This document shows positions 3,045 through 50,471 of a stretch of DNA of 64,000 bases, one piece after another. This stretch comes from an uncultured virus (IMG/VR IMGVR_UViG_3300011725_000001). Lineage: Duplodnaviria; Heunggongvirae; Uroviricota; Caudoviricetes. The stretch lies in IMG/VR virus record IMGVR_UViG_3300011725_000001, positions 1 to 64,000 of that record. One strand, 5' to 3'. The translations under genes and the position numbers were made by a program. How positions within the stretch are numbered: position 1 is the first letter of the stretch; the number at the start of each line of letters is the position of its first letter. The notes beneath the pieces were generated by a model. That model did not search any database, was not told the origin of the DNA, and saw only the letters and a list, made by a program, of their open reading frames with translations.

Positions 3045-3183
3045 GCTCCGCTCCTTTTTTAAAATCCTGAATGTGTGGCACTTCTGACAAGGAAGGTAAC
3101 ACGCACGTTACTAAATCAGAGCATGCAGATTGTCCACTGGACAATTTCATATTGCTTTACAGCGCCCTGCAAACGATCAACAA

Positions 3184-5074: not shown

Positions 5075-5097
5075 GCAAATTACAAACCGCTTAAAGT
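5075..5097 (+). promoter_or_regulatory. Putative late promoter
   Basis: GCAAATTACAAAC-N4-TAAAGT; the motif recurs before seven structural or lysis units. Confidence 0.75.
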
Positions 5098-10614: not shown

Positions 10615-10647
10615 TGGCGGTTATTGTTATCTAAGAGACATAGCCGC

Positions 10648-11556
10648 ATGAAATCTCCCTTCTTCAAAAACATCATGGTCTACAGCCTGAGCCGGGATAT
10701 TCCGTTAGACGCGGAAGAACTGGCGCAGCAGCTGCAGACGATGGCGTTTACCCCCTGTGCCGCGCAGGACATGGCGAAATCAGGCTGGATCAACATTACC
10801 TCAGATGAATTGCTGCTGGCTGAAAACGGTCAGTACCTGCTGTGCTGTCAGACTGAAAGCAAAATCATGCCCGCCGCCACGCTTAACGAGTTTGTGGCTG
10901 ACCGCGTGGCGAAAATTGAGCAGGAAGAGGCGCGCAAGGTGCGTCGCAGCGAACGCGTTTCCCTGAAGGATGAAGCCCTTCACACGCTGCTGCCGCGCGC
11001 CTTTACCCGCCGCACGCAGGCTTATATCTGGATCGACAGCGTAAATAGCCGCATCTACGTTGACGCGGCCAGCGCCAAAGCGGCAGAGGATATGCTCGCC
11101 ATGCTGCGCAAAACTATCGGCTCGCTGCCGGTTGTGCCGTTGATGGCTGAGGAGCCTGTCGAGCTCACGCTGACTGAATGGCTGCGCTCCGGCGACCTGC
11201 CGGCGGGCTTTTTGCTGGGCGACGAGGCCGAGCTCGCGGCGATTCTGGAAGAAGGCGGCAAAATCCGCTGTAAGAAGCAGGATCTAATCAGCGATGAAGT
11301 GCGCGCGCATATTGAGGCCGGAAAGGTAGTCACGCACCTGAGTCTTGACTGGCAGGAGCGCATTTTCTGCCGTGTGGCGGACGATTTGAGCATTAAGGGC
11401 ATTAAGTATGCCGACATGCTCACTGAGCAGAACGACGATATTGACCGTGAGGATCAGCGCGCACGCATGCTGGCTGATTTTATGCTGTTCACGTCCGAGT
11501 TTTCTGCTTTCTTCTCCGGGCTGGTGGATGCGCTGGGCGGTGAGGCAAAACGATGA
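10648..11556 (+). CDS. hrdC: RdgC-family recombination-associated protein
   Basis: FFKNIMVYSL, FTPCAAQDMAKSGW, TLLPRAF and LRKTIGSLPVVP are RdgC motifs; ATG at 10648 preferred. Confidence 0.93.
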   Translation: MKSPFFKNIMVYSLSRDIPLDAEELAQQLQTMAFTPCAAQDMAKSGWINITSDELLLAENGQYLLCCQTESKIMPAATLNEFVADRVAKIEQEEARKVRRSERVSLKDEALHTLLPRAFTRRTQAYIWIDSVNSRIYVDAASAKAAEDMLAMLRKTIGSLPVVPLMAEEPVELTLTEWLRSGDLPAGFLLGDEAELAAILEEGGKIRCKKQDLISDEVRAHIEAGKVVTHLSLDWQERIFCRVADDLSIKGIKYADMLTEQNDDIDREDQRARMLADFMLFTSEFSAFFSGLVDALGGEAKR

Positions 11557-13910
11557 TCACTTACGGCTCTGTCTGTTCCGGCATTGAAGCGGCCAGCGTG
11601 GCCTGGGACGGGCTGGGATGGACAGCCGCATGGTTTGCTGAAATAGAAAAGTTTCCTGCAGCCGTGCTGGCTCACCGTTACCCGGACGTGCCGAACCTGG
11701 GCGACATGACAAAGATTGCGGCCGGCGTTCGCGCCGGTTCCATTCCGGCGCCGGCCGTCATGGTTGGCGGTACCCCTTGCCAGGCATTTTCAATCGCCGG
11801 GCTCCGTAAGAGCCTTGATGACCCGCGCGGTCAGCTCACACTTGCTTATGTAGATTTAGCAAATGCCATTGATGCAAAACGAATTGAAAACGGCGAGCAG
11901 CCTGCCGTCCACCTGTGGGAAAACGTGCCGGGAAGCCTTAGCACACCCGACAACGCCTTTGGATTCTTCCTTGCCGGAATGGCTGGCGAAAATGAAGCGT
12001 TTGAACCAGGCCCAAGACCTGAGCACGGCAAAAGCGGACCGGGCTGGCGCTGGAACAAAAGCGAGCGTAAGCATGTTCCGAAGTGGCCAAAGTCTGGTTG
12101 CGTTTATGGGCGACAGCGCAAACTCGCCTGGCGACTCCTTGATGCCCAATACTTCGGAGTGGCCCAACGCCGCCGTCGCATCTTCGTTGTCGCAAGTGCT
12201 CGAAACGATGTTGATCCCGCAGAAATACTTCTTGAGTTCGATGGCCTGCGCCGGGATTCTCCGCCGTGCCGAAATACGAGGAAGGCAGTTGCCGCCCCTA
12301 CTGCAAGTGGCGCTGGAATCAGTGGCTCTGACTTCGCACACGCCGCAGCCGGTCATTTAGTTTCTGAGTGCGATAACGGCCTTAAATCAGCAGATTGTGA
12401 CGTCAGCTATTCTCCTCCTGTTGCATTTGGTGGCGGTAACTGTTCCGGCGCGCTGGATGTGGCAGCGTGTCTGACGGCTAAAGGGCAGCGTAATGACTTT
12501 GACGTTGAGACGTTCGCAGTACAGAGCGCCACGGGCGAACTGTGCCACGCGCTTAACGCTGAATCCGGCGAAACGTGCAAGGGTGATGCAGCGCCATGTG
12601 TTGCCCGCTGTGAGGAGCACGCAGCGTTTGCTGAAAACACCCGTGGTGAAGTCCGCCTGTTCAACGGAGACGGGCAAATAACGGGCGCACTGTCGGCCGG
12701 CGGCGGAAAGCCTGGACAGGGCTACCCTTCTGTTGTCACCCGTAGCGAAGTCCGGCGCCTGACGCCCAAAGAATGTGAGCGCTTACAGGGCTTCCCGGAT
12801 GGCTGGACACTGATACCGGAGAAGAAACGCAACACGCTTGCTGCTGACGAAATGGCTTACCTGCGCCTGACGCACCCTGACATGCCTGAAGAAGAGGCGC
12901 ACCGCCTGGCGGCTGATGGTCCGCGTTATAAAGCAATTGGTAACTCTATGGCGGTACCGGTTATGCGCTGGATTGGCGATCGTATTGCTAATCAGATCAT
13001 GCTGGCGGCCAGCGTAGTAGAGACCCGGCCTGTGGACCTCCCCGCTCTGCCGGCAGCAAAGAAAAAGCGTGCGGCGGCGCGAAAGGTTGCAGAGGATAAA
13101 TACCCGCGTTCATTTCTGAAATGGGCGGGCGGCAAACATTCCGTGCTTGATGAAATACTGGCGGTAATGCCAGCCGGGAAGCGCCTGATTGAGCCGTTTG
13201 TTGGCAGCGGTACCGTATTCATCAACGCAGGCTTTAAGCGCAACCTGCTGGGGGATATCAACCCGGATCTGATTAACCTCTTCAATCAGCTGCAGGGCAA
13301 CCCGGACACCGTGATTAATACGGCTCACCAGCTGGAAAAGAGCTGTCTCACCAACGAAGCCTACGTGGCCATGCGCAATGAATTTAACGGACGCCAGGCG
13401 CACGCGGTGCGGCATGCAGCGCTGTTCCTGGCGCTGATGCGCACCTGCTTTAACGGGCTGTGCCGGTATAACCTGAAAGGCCTGTTTAACGTGGGCTGGA
13501 ACAAAAAGGCAGGAGCAAACTACTTTCCGCTGGATGAATTGCAGCACTTCGCTGGCCTGCAGAAAGAAATGACGTTCATCTGCGCCGGGTTTGAGGAGGT
13601 AATCGGCCAGGCGGGCGAAGGTGACGTGATTTTCTGCGATCCGCCTTATGAGCCGATGCCGGACGAAAACGGCTTTACTGCCTACAGCGGCAACGCCTTT
13701 ACGTTTGAGCACCAGACTCGGCTGGTGGAGTGCCTGGTGGCAGCGCGCAAGCGCGGCGCTAAGGTAGTCATTACCAACAGCAGCGCGCCGTCAGTCGTGG
13801 ATTTGTACACGCGCAACGGCTTCAGGATCATGCCGCTGGCCGCACGCCGATCCGTGTCCTGTAAGGGCGACACACGTAAAACAGCAGACGACATAATTGC
13901 CGTGCTCTGA
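11553..13910 (+). CDS. dmt: Bifunctional C5-cytosine plus Dam-like adenine DNA methyltransferase
   Basis: N-terminal half has SVCSGI, GGTPCQAFS, ENV, QRRRR and GNSM. C-terminal half has FLKWAGGK, EPFVGSG and DPPY. Confidence 0.95.
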   Translation: MITYGSVCSGIEAASVAWDGLGWTAAWFAEIEKFPAAVLAHRYPDVPNLGDMTKIAAGVRAGSIPAPAVMVGGTPCQAFSIAGLRKSLDDPRGQLTLAYVDLANAIDAKRIENGEQPAVHLWENVPGSLSTPDNAFGFFLAGMAGENEAFEPGPRPEHGKSGPGWRWNKSERKHVPKWPKSGCVYGRQRKLAWRLLDAQYFGVAQRRRRIFVVASARNDVDPAEILLEFDGLRRDSPPCRNTRKAVAAPTASGAGISGSDFAHAAAGHLVSECDNGLKSADCDVSYSPPVAFGGGNCSGALDVAACLTAKGQRNDFDVETFAVQSATGELCHALNAESGETCKGDAAPCVARCEEHAAFAENTRGEVRLFNGDGQITGALSAGGGKPGQGYPSVVTRSEVRRLTPKECERLQGFPDGWTLIPEKKRNTLAADEMAYLRLTHPDMPEEEAHRLAADGPRYKAIGNSMAVPVMRWIGDRIANQIMLAASVVETRPVDLPALPAAKKKRAAARKVAEDKYPRSFLKWAGGKHSVLDEILAVMPAGKRLIEPFVGSGTVFINAGFKRNLLGDINPDLINLFNQLQGNPDTVINTAHQLEKSCLTNEAYVAMRNEFNGRQAHAVRHAALFLALMRTCFNGLCRYNLKGLFNVGWNKKAGANYFPLDELQHFAGLQKEMTFICAGFEEVIGQAGEGDVIFCDPPYEPMPDENGFTAYSGNAFTFEHQTRLVECLVAARKRGAKVVITNSSAPSVVDLYTRNGFRIMPLAARRSVSCKGDTRKTADDIIAVL

Positions 13911-42828: not shown

Positions 42829-44031
42829 TTAGTGTACCTTCCTATTTTGACGAGATGTTGCATATGTCATCACTACCGCCCCCAGTAGTAACAAACCACT
42901 TAAACCAAATGCACTTCTCCATCCCAGACTGTCGAATGCCAGACCTCCAGCCGTTGAACCAAGCGCAATCGATAGCTGGATCACCGCAACCATGAGGCCA
43001 CCACCCCTCTCTGCATCTTCGGGTAACGCTCGTGCTATCCATGTCCACCATCCTGTTGGCGCAGCCGTCGCAAGTAGCCCCCACAGGCTTAATAATACGG
43101 CAACGGCCCAGATGTGGTGTCCGACCAGCAGTAACGCACCAGTAATCGCGGCCATAAGCAACGGGATCATGATTAAGGTCTTGTAAAATTTGGCGTTCAG
43201 GAATGTTGAGACGATCATTGTGCCGACAAAACCTGCTATGCCTATTGCAAGCAAAATCAGAGAAAGGTTAGAAGGTCCCACTCTGGTGACGCTCTCCAGA
43301 AAGGGGCGCACGTAGGTAAACAAAGCAAACTGTCCCATAAAGAAGAGCCCGCAGGCAAGCATTCCCGTTGGTACGATGGCAACGCTGAACAGACGAAGCA
43401 CAGACCCCTGTGGTTTTTGTGTTTTATCGCTTTCCATTGAAGGCAGGCTGAACCATTGCCAGAAGAACGCAGCTATCGCAAGAGGGACGAGACATAAAAA
43501 GGCCCCACGCCAACCGACCGTTGTCCCCAGATAACTACCAAGCGGCGCAGCCACAACGGTGGCCAGCGCGTTACCGCCGTTAAAAATTGCCAGTGCGCGG
43601 GGAACCTGGTGCTGTGGCACGAGCCGAATGGCGGTTGCAGCCGACATTGACCAGAACCCTCCGATGACGACGCCAATCAGAGCCCTCCCCAGCATATAAA
43701 TCGGATAGTCAGGCGCCATGGTGATAACTAACCCTGATATGGCCATTAAGACCGTTAGCCCAAGCAGAAGATATTTACGATTCAGGTCTCCGGCAATATG
43801 GGAGATAGTCAGACTGGTCAGCACTGCCAGTGCGCCAGAGACGGCAATTCCTTGCCCTGCCAACCCTTCGGTAACGTGCAAATCGCGGGCAATGAGCGTA
43901 AGCAGGCTGACTGGCATAAACTCAGAAGCGATCAGCACAAACACGCAAAGCGTCATGGCAAATACGCCGCTCCAGTATGCATGCTTTTTTTCGTATGATG
44001 GTTTTAGACTTACAGTAGACATTATTAGCAT
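42829..44031 (-). CDS. MFS transporter (NepI/DHA1-like)
   Basis: About 12 TM segments, ASEFMPVSLL, GRALIG, GWRGAF. Confidence 0.93.
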   Translation of the reverse strand: MLIMSTVSLKPSYEKKHAYWSGVFAMTLCVFVLIASEFMPVSLLTLIARDLHVTEGLAGQGIAVSGALAVLTSLTISHIAGDLNRKYLLLGLTVLMAISGLVITMAPDYPIYMLGRALIGVVIGGFWSMSAATAIRLVPQHQVPRALAIFNGGNALATVVAAPLGSYLGTTVGWRGAFLCLVPLAIAAFFWQWFSLPSMESDKTQKPQGSVLRLFSVAIVPTGMLACGLFFMGQFALFTYVRPFLESVTRVGPSNLSLILLAIGIAGFVGTMIVSTFLNAKFYKTLIMIPLLMAAITGALLLVGHHIWAVAVLLSLWGLLATAAPTGWWTWIARALPEDAERGGGLMVAVIQLSIALGSTAGGLAFDSLGWRSAFGLSGLLLLGAVVMTYATSRQNRKVH

Positions 44032-44199
44032 CCCTTAATATCGAACCAGCCAGATTCAGGCGCAGTCGGGTCAGAAGTTATTCAGGGAATAACGACATAA
44101 TAGGTGGGTGAGAATATGGGGCGATGTGACATATTCTGCGTCACACCAGGCAGGTAAAAGCCACCCGTTTATGACAGGTGGCCTGGTAAACCTTTCGGG

Positions 44200-45336
44200 T
44201 TACCTTAAGTTTGCTTTGAAAAATTGCTCAAATTTGGCAAATGGGATCTTACCCGCAACGTTGTCGTACAGATCAACATGGTTTGCCCCAGGGACAATCA
44301 CTAACTCTTTCTCTTTGCTGCCGATTGCCTTAAAGGCATCTTCAGCAAAATAGCGTGAATGGGCTTTTTCGCCGGTCACGATGAGTGTAGGGATAGTAAC
44401 TTCATTGGCGTAACTCAGCAGCGGCATATTCATAAATGACAGCGGCATGGTTGCATTCCAGGCACCGGTTGAGTTGACCGAACGCTCATGGAAACCACGC
44501 GGCATGCGGTAATAATCAAAGAACTCTTTCAATACTGGGTTAGGATTCGCGGGCAGAGTTTCCGGCAGAATACGATCGGAAGCGGTGACGTTGCCCTTCT
44601 CATCAACATAAATGTCATGCCCGCCTGGCGCGAAAGCGCCATTTTCCGCATCCTTCCAGCGCTGCTTGTTCAGATACTGCAATACGGCACGACGATCGGC
44701 AGTGGTATAGCGGTCTTTGCCATCGCCCACGCCATGCCCCATCGCACGGCTCATGTCATACATCACGCTGGTCGCCACCGCCTTGACACGCGTGTCCATC
44801 GCGGCGTCGTTTAAGGCCATGCCGCCCCATCCGCAGATACCGAGCAGCCCGATACGGTTGCGATCCACCTCTTTTTGCAGGCCTAAGAAATCAACCGCCG
44901 CGCTGAAATCCTCGGTGTTGATATCCGGAGATGCGACGTTGCGCGGGTAGCCGCCGCTTTCGCCCGTGTATGAAGGGTCGAAAGCCAGAGTGACAAATCC
45001 CTGTTCAGCCAGCGTCTGCGCATACAGGCCGCTGGATTGCTCTTTCACCGCCCCGAAGGGGCCGCTAACAGCAATAGCTGCCAGCTTGCGATCCCCACGA
45101 TCCTTCGGGATGTAGAGATCCCCGACTAAGGTGATCCCGTATCGGTTCGGAAAGGTCACCTTACGGTGATCAACTTTCGTGCTCTCAGCAAAAGTTTTAT
45201 CCCATTTCTCGACCAGCGAAACGGGCGCGTTCGGATTGGCTGTATCAGCGTAACTCATATTTGTGACTCCACTTAATGATGCGCATAACAACAGGGCGGG
45301 TATCGCAGTTGTCAATTTTTGGGTGAAAGCAGTCAT
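44200..45336 (-). CDS. Alpha/beta hydrolase (YcjY-like) with probable signal peptide
   Basis: GPFGAVKEQ, FDPSYTGESGG, nucleophile elbow GICGWGG, HVDLYD; start at MTAFTQ assumed. Confidence 0.9.
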   Translation of the reverse strand: MTAFTQKLTTAIPALLLCASLSGVTNMSYADTANPNAPVSLVEKWDKTFAESTKVDHRKVTFPNRYGITLVGDLYIPKDRGDRKLAAIAVSGPFGAVKEQSSGLYAQTLAEQGFVTLAFDPSYTGESGGYPRNVASPDINTEDFSAAVDFLGLQKEVDRNRIGLLGICGWGGMALNDAAMDTRVKAVATSVMYDMSRAMGHGVGDGKDRYTTADRRAVLQYLNKQRWKDAENGAFAPGGHDIYVDEKGNVTASDRILPETLPANPNPVLKEFFDYYRMPRGFHERSVNSTGAWNATMPLSFMNMPLLSYANEVTIPTLIVTGEKAHSRYFAEDAFKAIGSKEKELVIVPGANHVDLYDNVAGKIPFAKFEQFFKANLR

Positions 45337-45497
45337 CAAAATCCCCTTCATAAAACGTGCCAGAAACAGGTTTCCTACGGACAACGCTGCTGTGCTTTGT
45401 TGCAATGCGCACATTATAGTTAGCAGAAATAGTACTGATTAGAGGGTGAAAAATGCTAAGATTGATAACATATTGTTCTGAATTGTGATGCGGCAGC

Positions 45498-46394
45498 ATG
45501 GGAAGGATGATGGCGAAACGGGAAAACTATAACGATCTCTATCTGTTTATGCAGGTCGTGCGAGAAGGGAGTTTTACTGCCGCCGCGCAGAGGCTTGGCC
45601 TGGCGCAGTCAGGAATTAGTCGTGCAGTGCGCGAGCTGGAAGAACGACTGGGCGTGCAGCTTCTGGTGCGTACCACGCGCAAGTTATCGCTCACCCATGC
45701 CGGCGAGTTGCTCTATCGAACCGTCGAATCTGGATTTGACGCTTTAGATATGGGGCTTGCCACGCTGGCCCATTATCGCCATACCCCATCGGGTACGGTC
45801 CGTATTAATGCCAGTCAGCACGCCATTGATAAAGTGCTGCTGCCGAAGCTGGCGGTGTTTAAACAACGCTACCCAGATATTCGGCTGGAGCTCATCAGCG
45901 AAAGCCGGTTTGTCGATATTATTGCTGAGCGCTTCGATGCCGGTATACGTCTGGGCTCGGAAGTAGGTAGCGGTATGGTCGCTGTGCGCATTTCGCCCGA
46001 TATGGAGATGGCCGTTGTCGGCACGCCCGAGCACTTTCGTCGCTACGGATTTCCGCAAACTCCCTCCGATTTAGTTATTCATCCCTGCATCGCTTACCAG
46101 TTTGGAGACGGCAGCCTGTATGCATGGGAACTCAATCAAGACGGTAAAAAGATAACCCATCAGCCTCAGGGACAATGGGCCTTTGCTGACAGCTATATGG
46201 AAGCCAAAGCAGCCCGGCTAGGCCTGGGACTGGCTTATGTTCCGGAGGAATTAGTTTCTGATGATATAGAACAGGGGGCGCTGATCAGAGTTTTGCAATG
46301 CTACAGTCAGCGCCTGGAAGGTTCATATATCTATTATCCGCACCGCAATGTGTCACCCGCTCTAAGAGCGGTTATCGATACATTGAGAATTTAA
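45498..46394 (+). CDS. LysR-family regulator, divergent
   Basis: GSFTAAAQRLG...ELEERLGVQLLVRTTRKLSLT HTH plus substrate-binding domain. Confidence 0.95.
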   Translation: MGRMMAKRENYNDLYLFMQVVREGSFTAAAQRLGLAQSGISRAVRELEERLGVQLLVRTTRKLSLTHAGELLYRTVESGFDALDMGLATLAHYRHTPSGTVRINASQHAIDKVLLPKLAVFKQRYPDIRLELISESRFVDIIAERFDAGIRLGSEVGSGMVAVRISPDMEMAVVGTPEHFRRYGFPQTPSDLVIHPCIAYQFGDGSLYAWELNQDGKKITHQPQGQWAFADSYMEAKAARLGLGLAYVPEELVSDDIEQGALIRVLQCYSQRLEGSYIYYPHRNVSPALRAVIDTLRI

Positions 46395-46535: not shown

Positions 46536-46558
46536 GCAAATTACAAACTCCATAAAGT
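46536..46558 (+). promoter_or_regulatory. Putative late promoter (endolysin)
   Basis: GCAAATTACAAAC-N4-TAAAGT. Confidence 0.78.
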
Positions 46559-46590: not shown

Positions 46591-47082
46591 ATGGAGCAAT
46601 CCGCAAACCGTAAAGCCTTTGGCGACATGCTGGCGTTCTCAGAAGGCACCAGTACTCACCCATTAACCCGCATGCGTGGCTATGACGTTATCGTGACCGG
46701 GCTGGGCGACAAGCTGGGCGAAATATTCACTGACTTCACCGATCACCCGTTCACAAATCGCAGCCCGAAAAAACTCAATAAGCATGGTCTGGCCTCGACT
46801 GCAGCAGGGCGTTATCAGCAGCTTTACCGCTACTGGCCGGTTTACAAAAAACAGCTGAAACTGCCCGACTTCAGCCCCGTGTCACAGGAGCGCTTGCTTG
46901 ACCAGCTGCTGAAAGAGCAGGGCGCGTATGCCGACGTTCACGCCGGACGAATCCGCACGGCCATTGGCAAAACCAACGATATCTGGGCGTCGCTCACTGG
47001 ATCGCCGTATGGTCAGAAAACGCACGCGCTTGAAACGCTGCTGACTGCCTATCGTGATGCTGGTGGGACAGTTACCGATTAA
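46591..47082 (+). CDS. Lambda-R-type endolysin (lytic transglycosylase)
   Basis: RKAFGDMLAFSEGT, GYDVIV, STAAGRYQ, LPDFSPVSQ, IWASL..SPYGQ. Confidence 0.93.
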   Translation: MEQSANRKAFGDMLAFSEGTSTHPLTRMRGYDVIVTGLGDKLGEIFTDFTDHPFTNRSPKKLNKHGLASTAAGRYQQLYRYWPVYKKQLKLPDFSPVSQERLLDQLLKEQGAYADVHAGRIRTAIGKTNDIWASLTGSPYGQKTHALETLLTAYRDAGGTVTD

Positions 47083-47966
47083 GCGCCTCTGAACCCTTCC
47101 GGGATCGCGTAGTTATCGTGCTTCAGACCGTCGCCGGCAAAATTACCCGTCTGGCGGCGGCTTTCTGGTTTTCGGCCTGCAGCTGCTTTGGGCTTAAACG
47201 TGGATTTGATGTAGCCGTACACCTTGTGCATCAGCTGGCCGTTGCGCTGGTATGCCTCTGCGCGGCGCTGTTTGTCTGCTGCTGCTGATCCTGCTTCCAA
47301 GCTTTGCAGTGATTCCTGATAAATCCCGAATTTTTTCTCTGGCGCTGGTGGCTCTGACGCAATCTCTTTCGATTCCGAAATTGCTGACTCACTGTATTGT
47401 GTTTCTCTTGTTCTGGAGAGATCTCTTACTTCTTGTTGGTCATTTTGACCAGGGGTAGCCTGTTCATTCTGACCAGGGGTAGCGAGGGTGAAATTTAATT
47501 TTGAGAAGGTGTCAGCAACGATTCTCCGGACGAGACTCTGACGCCCCGCAGGCTGAAGATTAGCCGCTTTCAGTTCAGCCAGACTCGCCTGTACAAAAGC
47601 CAGTGCTTTGCTGGTGAACGTGTACTTGCTGGGCTTACTCCATTTGTGGTTATTTTTGCAGCGCTGCTCCTCATGAGTGAGGATGCCGAGTTTAACCGCC
47701 AGGCGATAAGCGCGCTGTACGGTAGAAACGCTCACGCCTGCTTCTTCTGCCAGGGTGCTGAGGGATTTGATGATCTCAAATCTGGACGTTGAACACGCCA
47801 GATTACACGCGAATTTCAGTACGCGAGTGAGTGATTTTGGAAGAGGTGAAAGCTCAATAACGTGGGTGAAATCATACCCGGTAATTCGTACAGGGTTTTG
47901 CTTATTATCTGAGCAATGCAAGGGAAAAGAGTTGCCGTGATCGGCGTTTTTAGCTACTATCTTCAC
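47079..47966 (-). CDS. repL: Lytic replication initiator
   Basis: HTH LAEEAGVSVSTVQRAY, TPGQN repeats, C-terminal IPEGFRG as in P1 RepL. Confidence 0.9.
   Translation of the reverse strand: MKIVAKNADHGNSFPLHCSDNKQNPVRITGYDFTHVIELSPLPKSLTRVLKFACNLACSTSRFEIIKSLSTLAEEAGVSVSTVQRAYRLAVKLGILTHEEQRCKNNHKWSKPSKYTFTSKALAFVQASLAELKAANLQPAGRQSLVRRIVADTFSKLNFTLATPGQNEQATPGQNDQQEVRDLSRTRETQYSESAISESKEIASEPPAPEKKFGIYQESLQSLEAGSAAADKQRRAEAYQRNGQLMHKVYGYIKSTFKPKAAAGRKPESRRQTGNFAGDGLKHDNYAIPEGFRGA
47441..47483. repeat. Probable oriL direct repeats within repL
   Basis: CATT(T/C)TGACCAGGGGTAGC at 47441-47459 and 47465-47483. P1 oriL lies inside repL. Confidence 0.65.
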
Positions 47967-48001
47967 TGGTTATTTCCTTCCCTGTGAATGGATATTTCCA
48001 T
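47963..48001 (-). CDS. Putative 12-aa repL leader peptide
   Basis: CAGGAG RBS, MEISIHREGNNQ*; the TGA overlaps the repL GTG (GTGA). Confidence 0.5.
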   Translation of the reverse strand: MEISIHREGNNQ

Positions 48002-48102
48002 TGATTTACTCCTGTAAGTAGGTAGTACGGCGCAATGCCGTTGTGGCGCTAACCACATAAAGTTGTAGAAAAATCGACTGTGTCCAGCAGGCGATTTTTT
48101 TT
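47967..48102 (+). ncRNA. Putative antisense RNA to the repL leader
   Basis: TTGCCG-N17-TACTAT at 47932-47960; hairpin plus T8 terminator at 48069-48102. Confidence 0.55.
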
Positions 48103-48137
48103 GTTCTGACCAGGTTTGCCGGTTTGGTCAGATGCGG

Positions 48138-48166
48138 ATAATAAACGTGATCTGTAAAAGGATCAA
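48138..48166 (-). promoter_or_regulatory. Sigma70 promoter for repL
   Basis: TTGATC-N17-TATTAT on the minus strand. Confidence 0.65.
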
Positions 48167-48243
48167 CACAGGTAAGAATTTTCCGGTGTTTTAGAATCCG
48201 CTCCGAGAAACGCCCTGTATAGGGCGTACTCTCCTTATACCCT

Positions 48244-49248
48244 TTATTTTACTGAATTTATCCATAAAAGCGGGTTACATTCCGTCGCTTTTTGACGCGT
48301 CTGCGGAAGCGAATGTTTTTGCTGCGCGCCAATAGGAAGCGTAGCCGTAACGTTTGATCCGATGGATTCCAGCATGGCGGCGACGATCTGCGCATCTTCC
48401 GGTGTGTCCATCCGGCACAGCGCGGCAGTCTGCTCTTTACTGATAAACAGCGGCAGGCTGGCCAGCGCCTCTTTCATAACTTTACGGCGGGCTTTTGCCA
48501 CGTTGCCGGCGTTCTCAATCATCAGATTGGCGCTGCGCAGCCGATCCTCCAGCTCCAGTCGCTTGCCGTGCTCGATGTGCAGCGCCGATTCCAGCAAAGA
48601 TGCATCCCCCGATTCAAACATTGCTGCCTGGCCGCGCATACTTTCAAAGTGCTGAAAAATGTCCGCTGCCTGATTCTCCGAATACCCTTTTTCCACCAGC
48701 CCTGCGCAAATCATACTTTCACGATCGCTGGCTGATTCCAGCATGGCTGATGGATGCTCCAGGCTGATGTAATTGGGAACGGTCACATAGTCGAACCCGT
48801 GAAAGCTGGTGACTTTTGACACGGCGTTATCGTCGCCGCCGGTCGCCCATGACCAGCCGCCGGCGCGTGAACGGCTCATGCCGTCTACGATGTTGCCGGG
48901 TTCAGTATCAAGAATTTCCTGAACATGGGTGACCACGCCGTTATCGTCCAGGCTTACCTCAAGCGTCCGGTTAGAAGGCACGTTTTCAATCGTCACCGGC
49001 TTGCCGTCCACCATGACCACAGCAAATTCCGGCAGGTTCAGACGTCCGGTTTTCGCATAGTAGGCGGCGCGTCGCCCGTGGCCGTAGTAGCCGAACATTT
49101 CCCCCAGCTGAATACGTTCCTGCGTTTCCGGGCTGCTGAACGTTTCCCGGACCGAGCGCAGCAGGTAATTGCGATCATTTTGCGGCGTGAAACGACGAAT
49201 TTTATCAATGAGTGAAAAACGATCCGTTACCGTGCGGAGTGCTTTCAT
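48244..49248 (-). CDS. pro: Prohead protease
   Basis: GYYGHGRR, GGWSW and FHGFDYVTVPNY (H/S/D protease pattern); RBS gagga before ATG 49248. Confidence 0.88.
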   Translation of the reverse strand: MKALRTVTDRFSLIDKIRRFTPQNDRNYLLRSVRETFSSPETQERIQLGEMFGYYGHGRRAAYYAKTGRLNLPEFAVVMVDGKPVTIENVPSNRTLEVSLDDNGVVTHVQEILDTEPGNIVDGMSRSRAGGWSWATGGDDNAVSKVTSFHGFDYVTVPNYISLEHPSAMLESASDRESMICAGLVEKGYSENQAADIFQHFESMRGQAAMFESGDASLLESALHIEHGKRLELEDRLRSANLMIENAGNVAKARRKVMKEALASLPLFISKEQTAALCRMDTPEDAQIVAAMLESIGSNVTATLPIGAQQKHSLPQTRQKATECNPLLWINSVK

Positions 49249-49317
49249 GTTGTCCTCATAACTACAGGTGATGCCCCGCAAAGCGGCGGCAGCGCTGGCG
49301 GTTGCCTGCGCGGACTG

Positions 49318-49340
49318 ATGGTAGGAAGGTTGTAATTTGC
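49318..49340 (-). promoter_or_regulatory. Putative late promoter (pro)
   Basis: GCAAATTACAACC-N4-TACCAT on the minus strand. Confidence 0.72.
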
Positions 49341-49542
49341 GTGGGTAACTTTTCTTGATTCATGCGTGGATCTAATGACCAGTGGATAATTTCACATTAG
49401 ACATATTGAATTTATCAGCGCGGCGGATATAGTGTGCGCGCCGCTGCAAAACAGTGGCCGGGATTGGAACCCTGAAAAAGCATGAGAGCTGGCACACAGT
49501 GCCTTCGGCGCTACCACGTCCGGAAAATTCCGGGCGTATCTA

Positions 49543-49620
49543 TGGTGGCGTTGGCGGGGCTACCTTCGGGTAGGCCGGTTTTCTTGTGCACCGGTAGTTC
49601 CAACCCTGTCAACGTCACCA
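49543..49620 (+). ncRNA. c4: C4 antisense RNA (P1 c4/P4 CI type)
   Basis: Outer stem TGGTGGCGTTGGCGGGG/CCCTGTCAACGTCACCA, inner hairpins CTACC-TTCG-GGTAG and CCGGT-TTTCTTGTGC-ACCGG, bulge GTTCCAA, with complementary targets on both sides. Confidence 0.88.
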
Positions 49621-49674
49621 CCCGGAGATTGGAACCTCCTGTCGTGACGCTTCTCAAAGCACAGGGAGCACACC

Positions 49675-49932
49675 ATGTCTGATATCCCTCACGCGCCACC
49701 CCCTGCGGCGTATCTGTACTGCCAGGCTATTTCAATTATCTGCGAGAACGCTGGTGTTATTTGCCGCCGCGCACTGTGGGGCAACACTCCCCGTCACGTA
49801 TCTTTCCAGGCTGACGCGCAGGATCTGCTGAGTCTCATCTTCATGAACGAGTCCGGCAGGCTGTCTGTTTACGTTCCGTCGCCTGCAGATCTGACTTCCG
49901 AGGACTGGCAGATTATCCGGGTTACAGAGTGA
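49675..49932 (+). CDS. DUF2829/Tad2-like small protein
   Basis: YCQAI...GVICRRALWG...YVPSPADLTSEDWQII fits the F.eA....G..v.R.gW / w.psq.D.laeDW family pattern, by eye. Confidence 0.65.
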   Translation: MSDIPHAPPPAAYLYCQAISIICENAGVICRRALWGNTPRHVSFQADAQDLLSLIFMNESGRLSVYVPSPADLTSEDWQIIRVTE

Positions 49933-50471
49933 CAGCTGGAGTCAGAAGTTTATCTAATCAGATGGTCTGACCACACAACGGCTTTGCTTACAGATTGTTG
50001 CCAGAGTGGATTATCATCTTTGTATGGAAAAAGTGAAGCGGCAAATATTCTGCTCATAAGCCTGCGTTTAAGTCAGAAATACTGAGGGAGTGAGCCCGTG
50101 GCGCGAGAGGGTAAATAAAGCACTCAGAAAGCGTCTGGTTTTTTTCAGCGGGGGTTTTCCTAATACTTCCGGTTACTACTGCGCGATAATGGTAACCGAA
50201 GCGCGAAAAATCATACGCTTACAGATTGTGTACCATTAAAAGAGACATTTTGATCCCCCTCTTTAAGGGCTGGACATTAATTTAGACCTGAAAAAGTGCT
50301 TCTTTAAATTAAATTAATGATGATACTTTTAGTTAACGCAAATTAGTTAATGTGTTGACGAAGTTAAATAAAAATCACGTAGCTTTTGCGGAAACTTTTC
50401 ACGCGTAAATTTACGCTGAAAAGTTTCATGTTCAACATGGAAGTTTTATGCACGCAGCAAGAGGATGAAGC

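Follow-up and report, generated by a model that had tools for sequence, protein, structure and literature searches.

Introduction

The closest described counterpart of the locus analysed here is phage P1's lytic replicon. In the annotation of the P1 record, the promoter PkilA (P53) carries three Dam sites, the C1 operator OrepL (Op53) lies over its −10 element, and an antisense promoter, PaskilA (P53as), sits inside the first codons of kilA, its transcript starting 20 nucleotides (nt) within the gene; a two-way terminator after ant lies ~175 nt from the P53as start. The P53as RNA is reportedly roughly 180 nt long, a figure attributed to Heinrich et al. 1995 and in agreement with that distance. 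Here we examine the repL locus in the first 64 kb (a stretch of 64,000 nt, called the window throughout) of the 93,023-base-pair (bp) virus record IMG/VR IMGVR_UViG_3300011725_000001, which has direct terminal repeats and, judged by its genes and its nearest relatives, is a P1-family phage-plasmid of Pantoea. We propose, with slightly better than even confidence, that repL is controlled in this element by a repressor-guarded promoter together with a constitutive cis-antisense RNA of ~135 nt that would act at the ribosome site of repL. Every sequence feature listed for the locus in a first-pass annotation is present at the coordinates given there. What we read directly from the aligned loci is the set of sequence elements and how well they are conserved, and from these we infer the transcript, its pairing and its effect.

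The likeness to P1 runs through much of the locus. Both phages have a homologous initiator whose gene contains the lytic origin, oriL, at the same codon position and on the same strand, with matching iterons; both have a sense promoter with GATC sites, a hairpin in the leader (AATCACCA-N8-TGGTGATT in P1) and an antisense promoter within the first ~20 codons of the first gene, starting near the start codon, from which a short antisense RNA (predicted in our case) ends at a two-way terminator. A repressor operator at the promoter completes the parallel, as a candidate only in the window. The differences concern the arrangement of these parts. The window has no kilA, which places the antisense promoter inside repL itself, and its locus is inverted between pro and lyz, whereas that of P1 lies behind ant. 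In the window the antisense RNA would terminate within the leader, ~30 nt downstream of the sense start. Whereas the ~180-nt RNA of P1 crosses the sense promoter, the window RNA would stop short of it and act on the ribosome site instead. The candidate operator has another sequence and lies upstream of the −35 element, in contrast to that of P1, and the two leader sequences cannot be aligned.

Two plasmid systems offer further comparisons. Autoregulation through inverted partial iterons is a feature of iteron plasmids such as F, pSC101 and R6K. The locus presumably resembles them (F RepE, pSC101 RepA, R6K pi) in having direct repeats at the origin and an inverted repeat at its own promoter that share 8-11 nt, although RepL is not a Rep_3 protein and the repeat match is confined to one lineage. 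The other system is the CopA-CopT/tap arrangement of IncFII plasmids (R1/NR1), in which a short stem-loop antisense RNA, as predicted here, opposes a long rep leader, and a short open reading frame (ORF) stops on the rep start. Unlike in IncFII, the leader ORF of the window is not conserved in its family, no conserved structure was seen that ties repL translation to this ORF, and a CopB-like second regulator was not seen; nor did the record contain a match to IncFII RepA (PF02387, IncFII_repA).

A conserved candidate antisense promoter and a terminator at the start of repL

The lytic replication initiator gene repL (47079-47966, minus strand) has a GTG start and encodes 295 amino acids (phrog_2418, E 1.8e-69). 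Its product is 33.6% identical to P1 RepL over residues 28-176 (tblastn) and 27% identical over 284 aligned positions (BLASTP, E 3e-20), and tblastn finds the repL genes of P1, P7 and SJ46 with E values of 2e-12 to 2e-13. For comparison we used 65 related loci (6 plasmids, 3 genome contigs, 31 viral contigs and 25 metagenome contigs), collected by protein similarity and hence independently of the motifs later counted in them; one spurious genome match (L010) was dropped. Relative to the window, their RepL proteins fall into groups of ~95-98%, ~57-62% (the 60% group) and ~55% identity (the 55% group). The most distant repL lineage, at 55% identity, is represented by three metagenome contigs (L066, L067 and L068). 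In these, lyz, which is convergent with repL in the window, is reduced to a fragment, adjoining a transposase gene (PF01527) in L066, and pro, which lies upstream of repL in the window, is absent from the upstream sequence that the contigs hold; the repL control region is intact where they reach it.

Within repL codons 3-12 lies a candidate antisense promoter, TTGCCG-N17-TACTAT (47932-47960, plus strand; −35 at 47932-47937, −10 at 47955-47960). The pattern TTGCCG-17-TA(C/A)(T/C)AT occurs in 62 of 62 sequences by regular expression and, read by eye, in L048 and L067 as well; L050 and L054, whose sequence breaks off at the promoter or close to it, were not read. Both hexamers and the 17-bp spacing are fixed, whereas the spacer itself varies at six positions, several of these changes altering the protein. 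Relatives with a swapped 5′ end and an ATG start also retain TA..AT at the −10 (TAACAT, TACCAT). Across 32 distinct genes the synonymous entropy is 0.14-0.21 over repL codons 5-28, against a gene mean of 0.62, and the only other cold stretch is oriL, with 0-0.22 over codons 147-193. By this measure repL has two stretches under extra constraint at the level of DNA or RNA, its 5′ end and oriL.

Transcription from this promoter is predicted to yield a cis-antisense RNA of ~133-137 nt (47966-48102, plus strand), made up of a 5′ tail and the complements of the leader-ORF region, of two stem-loops (B and A) and of a terminator. The predicted RNA folds with −38.4 kcal/mol (z −2.43), and the 18 nt at its 5′ end, complementary to the repL Shine-Dalgarno (SD) sequence, have a mean unpaired probability of 0.66; the sense leader folds with a z of −3.72. 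A comparison of 47700-48400, which takes in both the candidate RNA and the leader, with Rfam 15 gave no match at E up to 1. The RNA would end at a two-way intrinsic terminator (48069-48102, plus strand; stem 48069-48080/48088-48099), which has a run of eight T residues on the plus strand (T8, 48095-48102) and of five on the minus strand. Its inverted repeat, with 12-nt arms that are 92% complementary and are followed by the T8, is also the 3′ hairpin in the fold of the 137-nt RNA, and was omitted by our terminator scan because of an internal mismatch in the stem. Among 25 distinct sequences the plus-strand T run of at least eight is invariant, whereas the minus-side run varies from 4 to 6; in 24 of them the plus-strand form of the hairpin is the more stable. 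The internal position forms a U.G or C-G pair on the plus strand in 18 of the 25, as against 2 of 25 paired on the minus strand; in the 55% group a full C-G pair occupies the position, and the stem is perfect in L066 and L068. The plus-strand terminator placed here by a first-pass annotation of the DNA is present and conserved, and is better formed on the plus strand than on the minus. A second plus-strand promoter-like site (48035-48063, 7/12) was set aside, as it would yield the terminator hairpin only.

Two stem-loops precede the terminator in the predicted antisense RNA. Stem-loop A (48042-48057; sense TGTGG-TTAGCG-CCACA) has a conserved stem and a variable loop, and three of its pairs show compensatory changes, found in the L051/L014/L015 lineage and in L066/L068. 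In stem-loop B (48027-48041; sense ACGGC-ATTGC-GCCGT) the CGGC/GCCG core is near-invariant, with 96% of cells paired and no compensatory change. The loop sequences of the stem-loops differ between lineages. Pooling the terminator and both stem-loops gives 484 paired cells out of 500 for the plus strand and 467 out of 500 for the minus strand; taken as a named structure, with 96.8% of the 500 cells paired and three compensatory pairs, all in stem-loop A, this was reached by 1 of 500 shuffles.

Several observations weigh against an antisense RNA of this kind. The promoter matches the consensus at 8 of 12 positions, has no extended −10 and falls below the scan threshold of 9/12; with ~0.35 matches of this grade expected per 130 nt, it stands at chance level by itself, and its support therefore comes from conservation. 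The conserved hexamers fall in codons that specify conserved amino acids (I V and G N). Synonymous variation stays low as far as codon 28, far past the promoter, and part of this could be due to an anti-SD-like TTTTCCC at codons 14-15 or to structure in the start region. The lineages are few and some contigs appear in two of the collections, so that the counts overstate independence. The covariation is thin, amounting to 4 cells and probably two events. Stem-loops A and B are about equally good on either strand and so do not discriminate between the strands; a two-strand fit is also what would be expected of a sense/antisense pair. The public runs found were assembled contigs, and none of the four compared with the DNA covers 47874-48328, making them uninformative on the transcript. 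Of the ~135-nt antisense RNA that the first-pass annotation had drawn over the repL ribosome-binding site, the promoter and terminator prove to be conserved and the comparison with the P1 topology is apt, while the transcript itself is a prediction.

A further point on the same side comes from the gene order. The late-type gene lyz (46591-47082, plus strand) overlaps repL by 4 nt, tail to tail (47079-47082 in the window, and likewise in the six plasmids), and a convergent lyz overlapping the repL 3′ end is found in 58 of the 65 loci, the other seven having at most 32 bases beyond repL. There is no room for lyz to have its own terminator, and the overlap means that late transcription of lyz has to cross repL from end to end, antisense to it, up to the T8 run, a point absent from the first-pass annotation. 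It follows that the plus-strand terminator may do no more than end the lyz transcript. On this explanation no dedicated small antisense RNA exists, the hairpins act in the sense leader only (in mRNA stability or partial attenuation), and the 5′ constraint reflects structure at the start codon, for example SD/anti-SD pairing. The chance-level match of the antisense promoter is in keeping with this, and so are the lack of any convincing plus-strand terminator between lyz and 48069 in the scan, the recurrence of the motif CGCAAATTACAAAC, in the manner of a late promoter, ahead of lyz (at 46536), of pro (at 49331, reverse) and of three more genes, and a sense fold including 66 nt of coding sequence, in which the ribosome-site region pairs with codons 12-20. 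It accounts less readily for hexamers and an exact 17-bp spacing that are kept while the spacer changes, or for the TA..AT retained by relatives with a swapped 5′ end, and P1 offers a proven case of a short antisense RNA with this topology. In the L066-L068 lineage, moreover, the hexamers are intact in all three contigs and the terminator, with its perfect stem, is found in L066 and L068, the sole two reaching it; since both elements survive where lyz is a fragment, this modestly favours an antisense function independent of lyz. We regard termination of lyz as the whole explanation to be unlikely, while giving it real weight, and note that termination of lyz and a dedicated antisense RNA can both hold.

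The sense promoter and a candidate repressor operator

The repL promoter, TTGATC-17-TATTAT (48138-48166, minus strand; −35 at 48166-48161, −10 at 48143-48138), scores 9/12 and is one of only 2 promoter-like sites that the scan lists in 47000-48700 at the threshold of 9/12. All 62 sequences examined have the pattern TTGAT(C/T)-17-TA....-CCG, a count in which the regular expression itself partly fixes the motif; the five loci missed by an earlier, stricter expression differ only in the base after CCG. The −10 is TATCAT in 34 sequences, TATTAT in 26, and TAGAAT and TATTAC in 1 each. Its score and its conservation uphold the minus-strand promoter that had been assigned to repL from the window sequence. 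GATC sites are found in the −35 and spacer of this promoter (48161-48164 and 48146-48149) and in the spacer of the antisense promoter (47940-47943); L066/L068 have lost those on the sense side, and L059 that of the antisense promoter.

Beside the promoter, ~24 nt upstream of the −35, lies a candidate C1-type operator (48183-48199, minus strand) with the core ATTCTAAA at 48190-48197, a feature absent from the first-pass annotation. The 93-kb record contains 10 copies of ATTCTAAA (at 3183, 3198, 10593, 10608, 48190, 52636, 62269, 70524, 77139 and 78489), against 2.2 ± 1.5 expected from 200 Markov simulations, in which the maximum was 7, and against 0 for the reversed control. All 10 lie outside ORFs, although non-ORF sequence makes up 13.7% of the record. 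Both ref and the gene at 10624 are immediately preceded by an inverted pair of copies, and single copies are located near a C1 homologue and between portal and darB. This distant homologue (record positions 76079-76801) is 22% identical to P1 C1, and it is likely that ATTCTAAA marks the operator set of the phage's diverged C1 repressor, a candidate assignment in which binding is judged from distribution. The P1 C1 operator consensus itself has 0 matches in the window at up to 3 mismatches. In five relatives of the 60% group, the sequence upstream of the −35 was sought as a repeated operator in their own records, and its counts were not above those of the reversed-pattern control.

The palindrome at the transcript start and the oriL iterons

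The oriL core lies within repL (47420-47483, plus strand) and comprises a 13-mer-like GATCTCTTACTTC (47420-47432) and two 23-bp iterons (47437-47459 and 47461-47483, plus strand) with the core TCAT(T/C)(T/C)TGACCAGGGG. This block is near-invariant in seven of seven plasmids. GATCTCTTACTTC and the iterons fall at repL codons ~160-182 on the antisense strand, and both codon position and strand match those of GATCTTTTTGTTT in P1, which also carries the matching repeats TCATCCTGACAGGGGG and TCATTTTGACATGGGGG. The P1 GATCTTTTTGTTT is the 13-mer-like motif of the AT2 region, which was shown to be required for replication driven by RepL (PMC9948254). There is thus good evidence that GATCTCTTACTTC and the two iterons are an oriL core shared with P1, for which we infer an origin function.

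At the other end of the locus an exact palindrome, TCTGACCA-N12-TGGTCAGA (48105-48132), covers approximately +1 to +28 of the repL transcript and could be a 5′-terminal hairpin or a protein site. In the window it shares the 11-mer TTCTGACCAGG with oriL repeat 2 (47467-47477) at 11 of 11 nt. TCTGACCA occurs 5 times in the window, compared with 1.08 expected and with 0 of 100 shuffles reaching 5; 5 of its 6 copies in the 93-kb record lie within 46.9-50.1 kb, and of the 72 copies of TGACCA in the 93 kb, 11 lie within 3.2 kb around repL. From the likeness between palindrome and oriL core it had been proposed that RepL represses its own promoter at this site. The exact match is confined to the window lineage and was not found in the 60% and 55% lineages, though these share the iterons. 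A palindrome is present in every lineage, with arms that differ (TCTGACCA, TCTGACAC, TCTGATTC, TCAAATTC and TCTCATAC), while the helix-turn-helix region of RepL is nearly the same across lineages whose arms change. Because the arms change while the iterons and the helix-turn-helix region stay, RepL binding at the palindrome is not, on this comparison, a feature of the family. The repetition of the oriL core therefore stands for the window's own lineage, whereas autorepression by RepL finds no support across the family, where the oriL repeats are near-invariant and the palindrome arms vary.

Autorepression restricted to the window's own lineage is a minority reading and a speculative one. Put fully, the TGACCA-core repeats would be the RepL sites of oriL and the everted copy at the transcript start a RepL operator in this lineage, with negative feedback added to the antisense RNA and to a coupled leader ORF; we consider this quite unlikely. 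If true, it would give a first sequence-level handle on RepL recognition, and a "lytic" replicon would possess a full copy-control circuit.

A broader alternative is that the palindrome is not an RNA hairpin and serves instead as an operator, for RepL in the window lineage or for some other dimeric repressor. It would fit a position at the transcript start, and the symmetry is held by two-sided change, with one clean switch (U-A in 14 sequences, A-U in 6 and mismatched intermediates in 3), as a dimer site would also demand. A third perfect palindrome, TGGTC-T-GACCA, which has its half-site in common with the oriL iteron and with the promoter palindrome, is located at 49963-49973, just 3′ of a Tad2-like ORF. 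Only one palindrome of the promoter kind is found in the window at up to 3 mismatches, however, its arms differ between lineages sharing iterons, and it is weak in L066. Several one-sided changes are tolerated as G.U on either strand, which fits RNA better; the strand itself is evenly balanced by G.U asymmetry, the plus strand being more stable in 13 and the minus in 12. We hold an operator in place of a hairpin to be doubtful, and it would be compatible with antisense control of repL.

Ribosome sites and the leader ORF

The repL ribosome site, GGAAGGAAA with the GTG start (47964-47982, minus strand), has an SD duplex energy of −7.3 kcal/mol, and a GTG start with an SD is common to the window group and to the 60% and 55% identity groups. 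Upstream of it in the window is a leader ORF (47963-48014, minus strand) of 12 codons (MEISIHREGNNQ), whose SD CAGGAG (48014-48009; −6.9 kcal/mol) lies seven bases upstream of an ATG (48001-47999) within a small hairpin (AUGGA/UCCAU), and whose TGA (47965-47963) overlaps the repL GTG as GTGA. These details of the 12-codon ORF, reported in the first-pass annotation, are exact. They are also specific to the lineage, a leader ORF of 12 or 24 codons being confined to the window's closest relatives. Among 26 distinct leaders, an SD-preceded ORF ending at −9 to +17 of the repL start is found in 16 and is ATG-started in 8, whereas 10 have none, and the peptides are unrelated between lineages. Since the invariant CTATAGTAGCTAA imposes stops at +10 and +17, it is automatic for an ORF to end at the repL start. 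L013, with a RepL 96% identical to that of the window, has an SD hairpin directly before the ATG start of its repL, and no leader ORF.

The segment around the ribosome site (47967-48020), in the window and its relatives, is hypervariable, with tandem duplication of SD modules and with GGA motifs in hairpin loops. Examples are pPSP-26e, which carries a 36-nt repeat, the loci L007, L014 and L015, which have two SD hairpins in tandem, and the 60% group, with repeated TAGCAAGGAA modules. The leader ORF, in our reading, arose as a by-product when the start region was duplicated in tandem.

These findings bear on the full circuit that had been proposed for the window, in which the antisense RNA is joined by obligatory leader-peptide coupling, as in tap-repA of IncFII, and by RepL autorepression. 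In its favour are the good leader SD, the ATG and the stop/start overlap, together with the 36-nt duplication in close relatives, which keeps the frame and gives 24 codons; the palindrome arm identical to 11 nt of iteron 2 and the clustering of TCTGACCA (5/6) and TGACCA (11/72) in 3.2 kb around repL would supply the autorepression. Against these stand the absence of the ORF from 10 of 26 leaders, the automatic position of its stop, the SD hairpin of L013, the separate SD of repL, which no conserved stem was seen to hide, and a chance of ~0.56 that a 36-nt in-frame duplication is free of stops. The iterons, moreover, are invariant while the palindrome arms change, with a nearly constant recognition-helix region in RepL. 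Translational coupling through a leader peptide thus fails as a conserved feature, and we think the full circuit very unlikely; coupling to the leader ORF is possible in the window lineage, where it would be neither needed nor conserved.

A model for the silencing of repL

The antisense RNA that we favour would work as follows. Sense transcription would start from the sigma-70 promoter at 48166-48138, beside the probable operator of a C1-like repressor, and would produce a leader of ~165 nt containing in turn the palindromic hairpin, the two-way terminator, the two stem-loops and a variable segment with the ribosome site or sites. The palindrome is taken here as the 5′ hairpin of the mRNA, and possibly also as a protein site. 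A weak, probably constitutive promoter within repL codons 3-12 would fire in the opposite direction, giving an antisense RNA of ~135 nt that begins next to the repL start codon and ends at the T8 terminator, with a 5′ tail complementary to the repL SD and two stem-loops mirroring those of the leader. The two RNAs would pair loop to loop first and then along the tail, which would block repL translation and probably lay the duplex open to RNase III. A stray repL transcript in the lysogen would then yield no initiator, and lytic replication would follow only upon strong derepression of the sense promoter. This is the role attributed to the P53as RNA of P1, with the ribosome site as target instead of the promoter. 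Read-through from lyz to the T8 terminator could add a late shut-off of repL.

Genomic context

The gene repL is flanked by two late-type genes, lyz on its 3′ side and pro (48244-49281, minus strand) upstream. A P1 KilA query gave no match in the 93,023-bp record, an empty search being weak evidence, and pro and a hairpin occupy the upstream position instead, in line with the earlier description of repL as having no kilA before it. This hairpin (ACGCCCT-ATAC-AGGGCGT; 48210-48227, minus strand) follows the pro stop codon, parts pro from the repL promoter, and recurs in every lineage, each time with another sequence, taking the form CGTGCCC..GGGCACG followed by TTTT in the 60% group. A separate Rep_3 plasmid initiator is encoded at 1407-2291, and repL is for this reason read as the lytic replicon, by analogy with P1; a role for repL as the plasmid-maintenance replicon was set aside on the same ground.

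The element has a P1-like gene set that includes Ref, DarB-like, Ulx-like and PmgS-like proteins, portal, sheath, baseplate, a head-processing protein and pro. A DNA similarity search against phage records gave no match, and the closest public DNA consists of six plasmids. Two are ~95% identical, namely pPSP-26e of Pantoea sp. PSNIH1 and a record labelled Acinetobacter venetianus, and four are ~70% identical and come from P. agglomerans or P. eucalypti. The record labelled A. venetianus (L004, CP060164.1) is ~95% identical to the Pantoea phage-plasmids at the repL locus, which may point to a jump between hosts or to an assembly that is mislabelled or contaminated.

A cargo block (42829-46394) adjoining lyz contains an alpha/beta hydrolase (44200-45414) and a LysR regulator (45498-46394); in relatives the position beside lyz holds other genes, such as a Vat acetyltransferase in pEuc3 and other hypothetical genes. 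The motif CGCAAATTACAAAC occurs in the window at 5075, 14491, 18274, 46536 and 49331 (reverse), and elsewhere in the record at 82723 (reverse). It stands ahead of lyz (at 46536), of pro (at 49331, reverse) and of further genes of structural or late type, and is a possible late (Lpa-type) promoter element that presumably resembles the late promoters of P1. A C4 antisense RNA (Rfam RF01695, 85.4 bits) at 49538-49625 (plus strand) forms a locus separate from the repL leader. It is followed by an ORF of 85 amino acids (49675-49932, plus strand) with a Thoeris anti-defence Tad2-like domain (PF11195, E 3.9e-6), and here precedes this ORF and not icd/ant as in P1; the C4-controlled operon may thus carry an anti-defence gene. 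The phage also encodes a large DNA methyltransferase (11553-13910).

Conclusions

As far as its sequence and that of its relatives can tell, the locus is most likely the P53/P53as scheme of P1 rebuilt in a cassette that lacks kilA, rather than a control of a new kind, and nothing in it overturns current understanding. The comparison pins down a conserved oriL core, the 13-mer and two iterons, shared with P1, where the exact lytic origin is still described as unknown (PMC9948254). In P1-family phage-plasmids repL is the trigger of runaway replication, and it serves as a copy-number amplifier in cloning vectors and biosensors. Its silencing in the prophage decides the stability of the lysogen, and the lineage-specific loops of the predicted antisense RNA could set the cross-reactivity between co-resident phage-plasmids.

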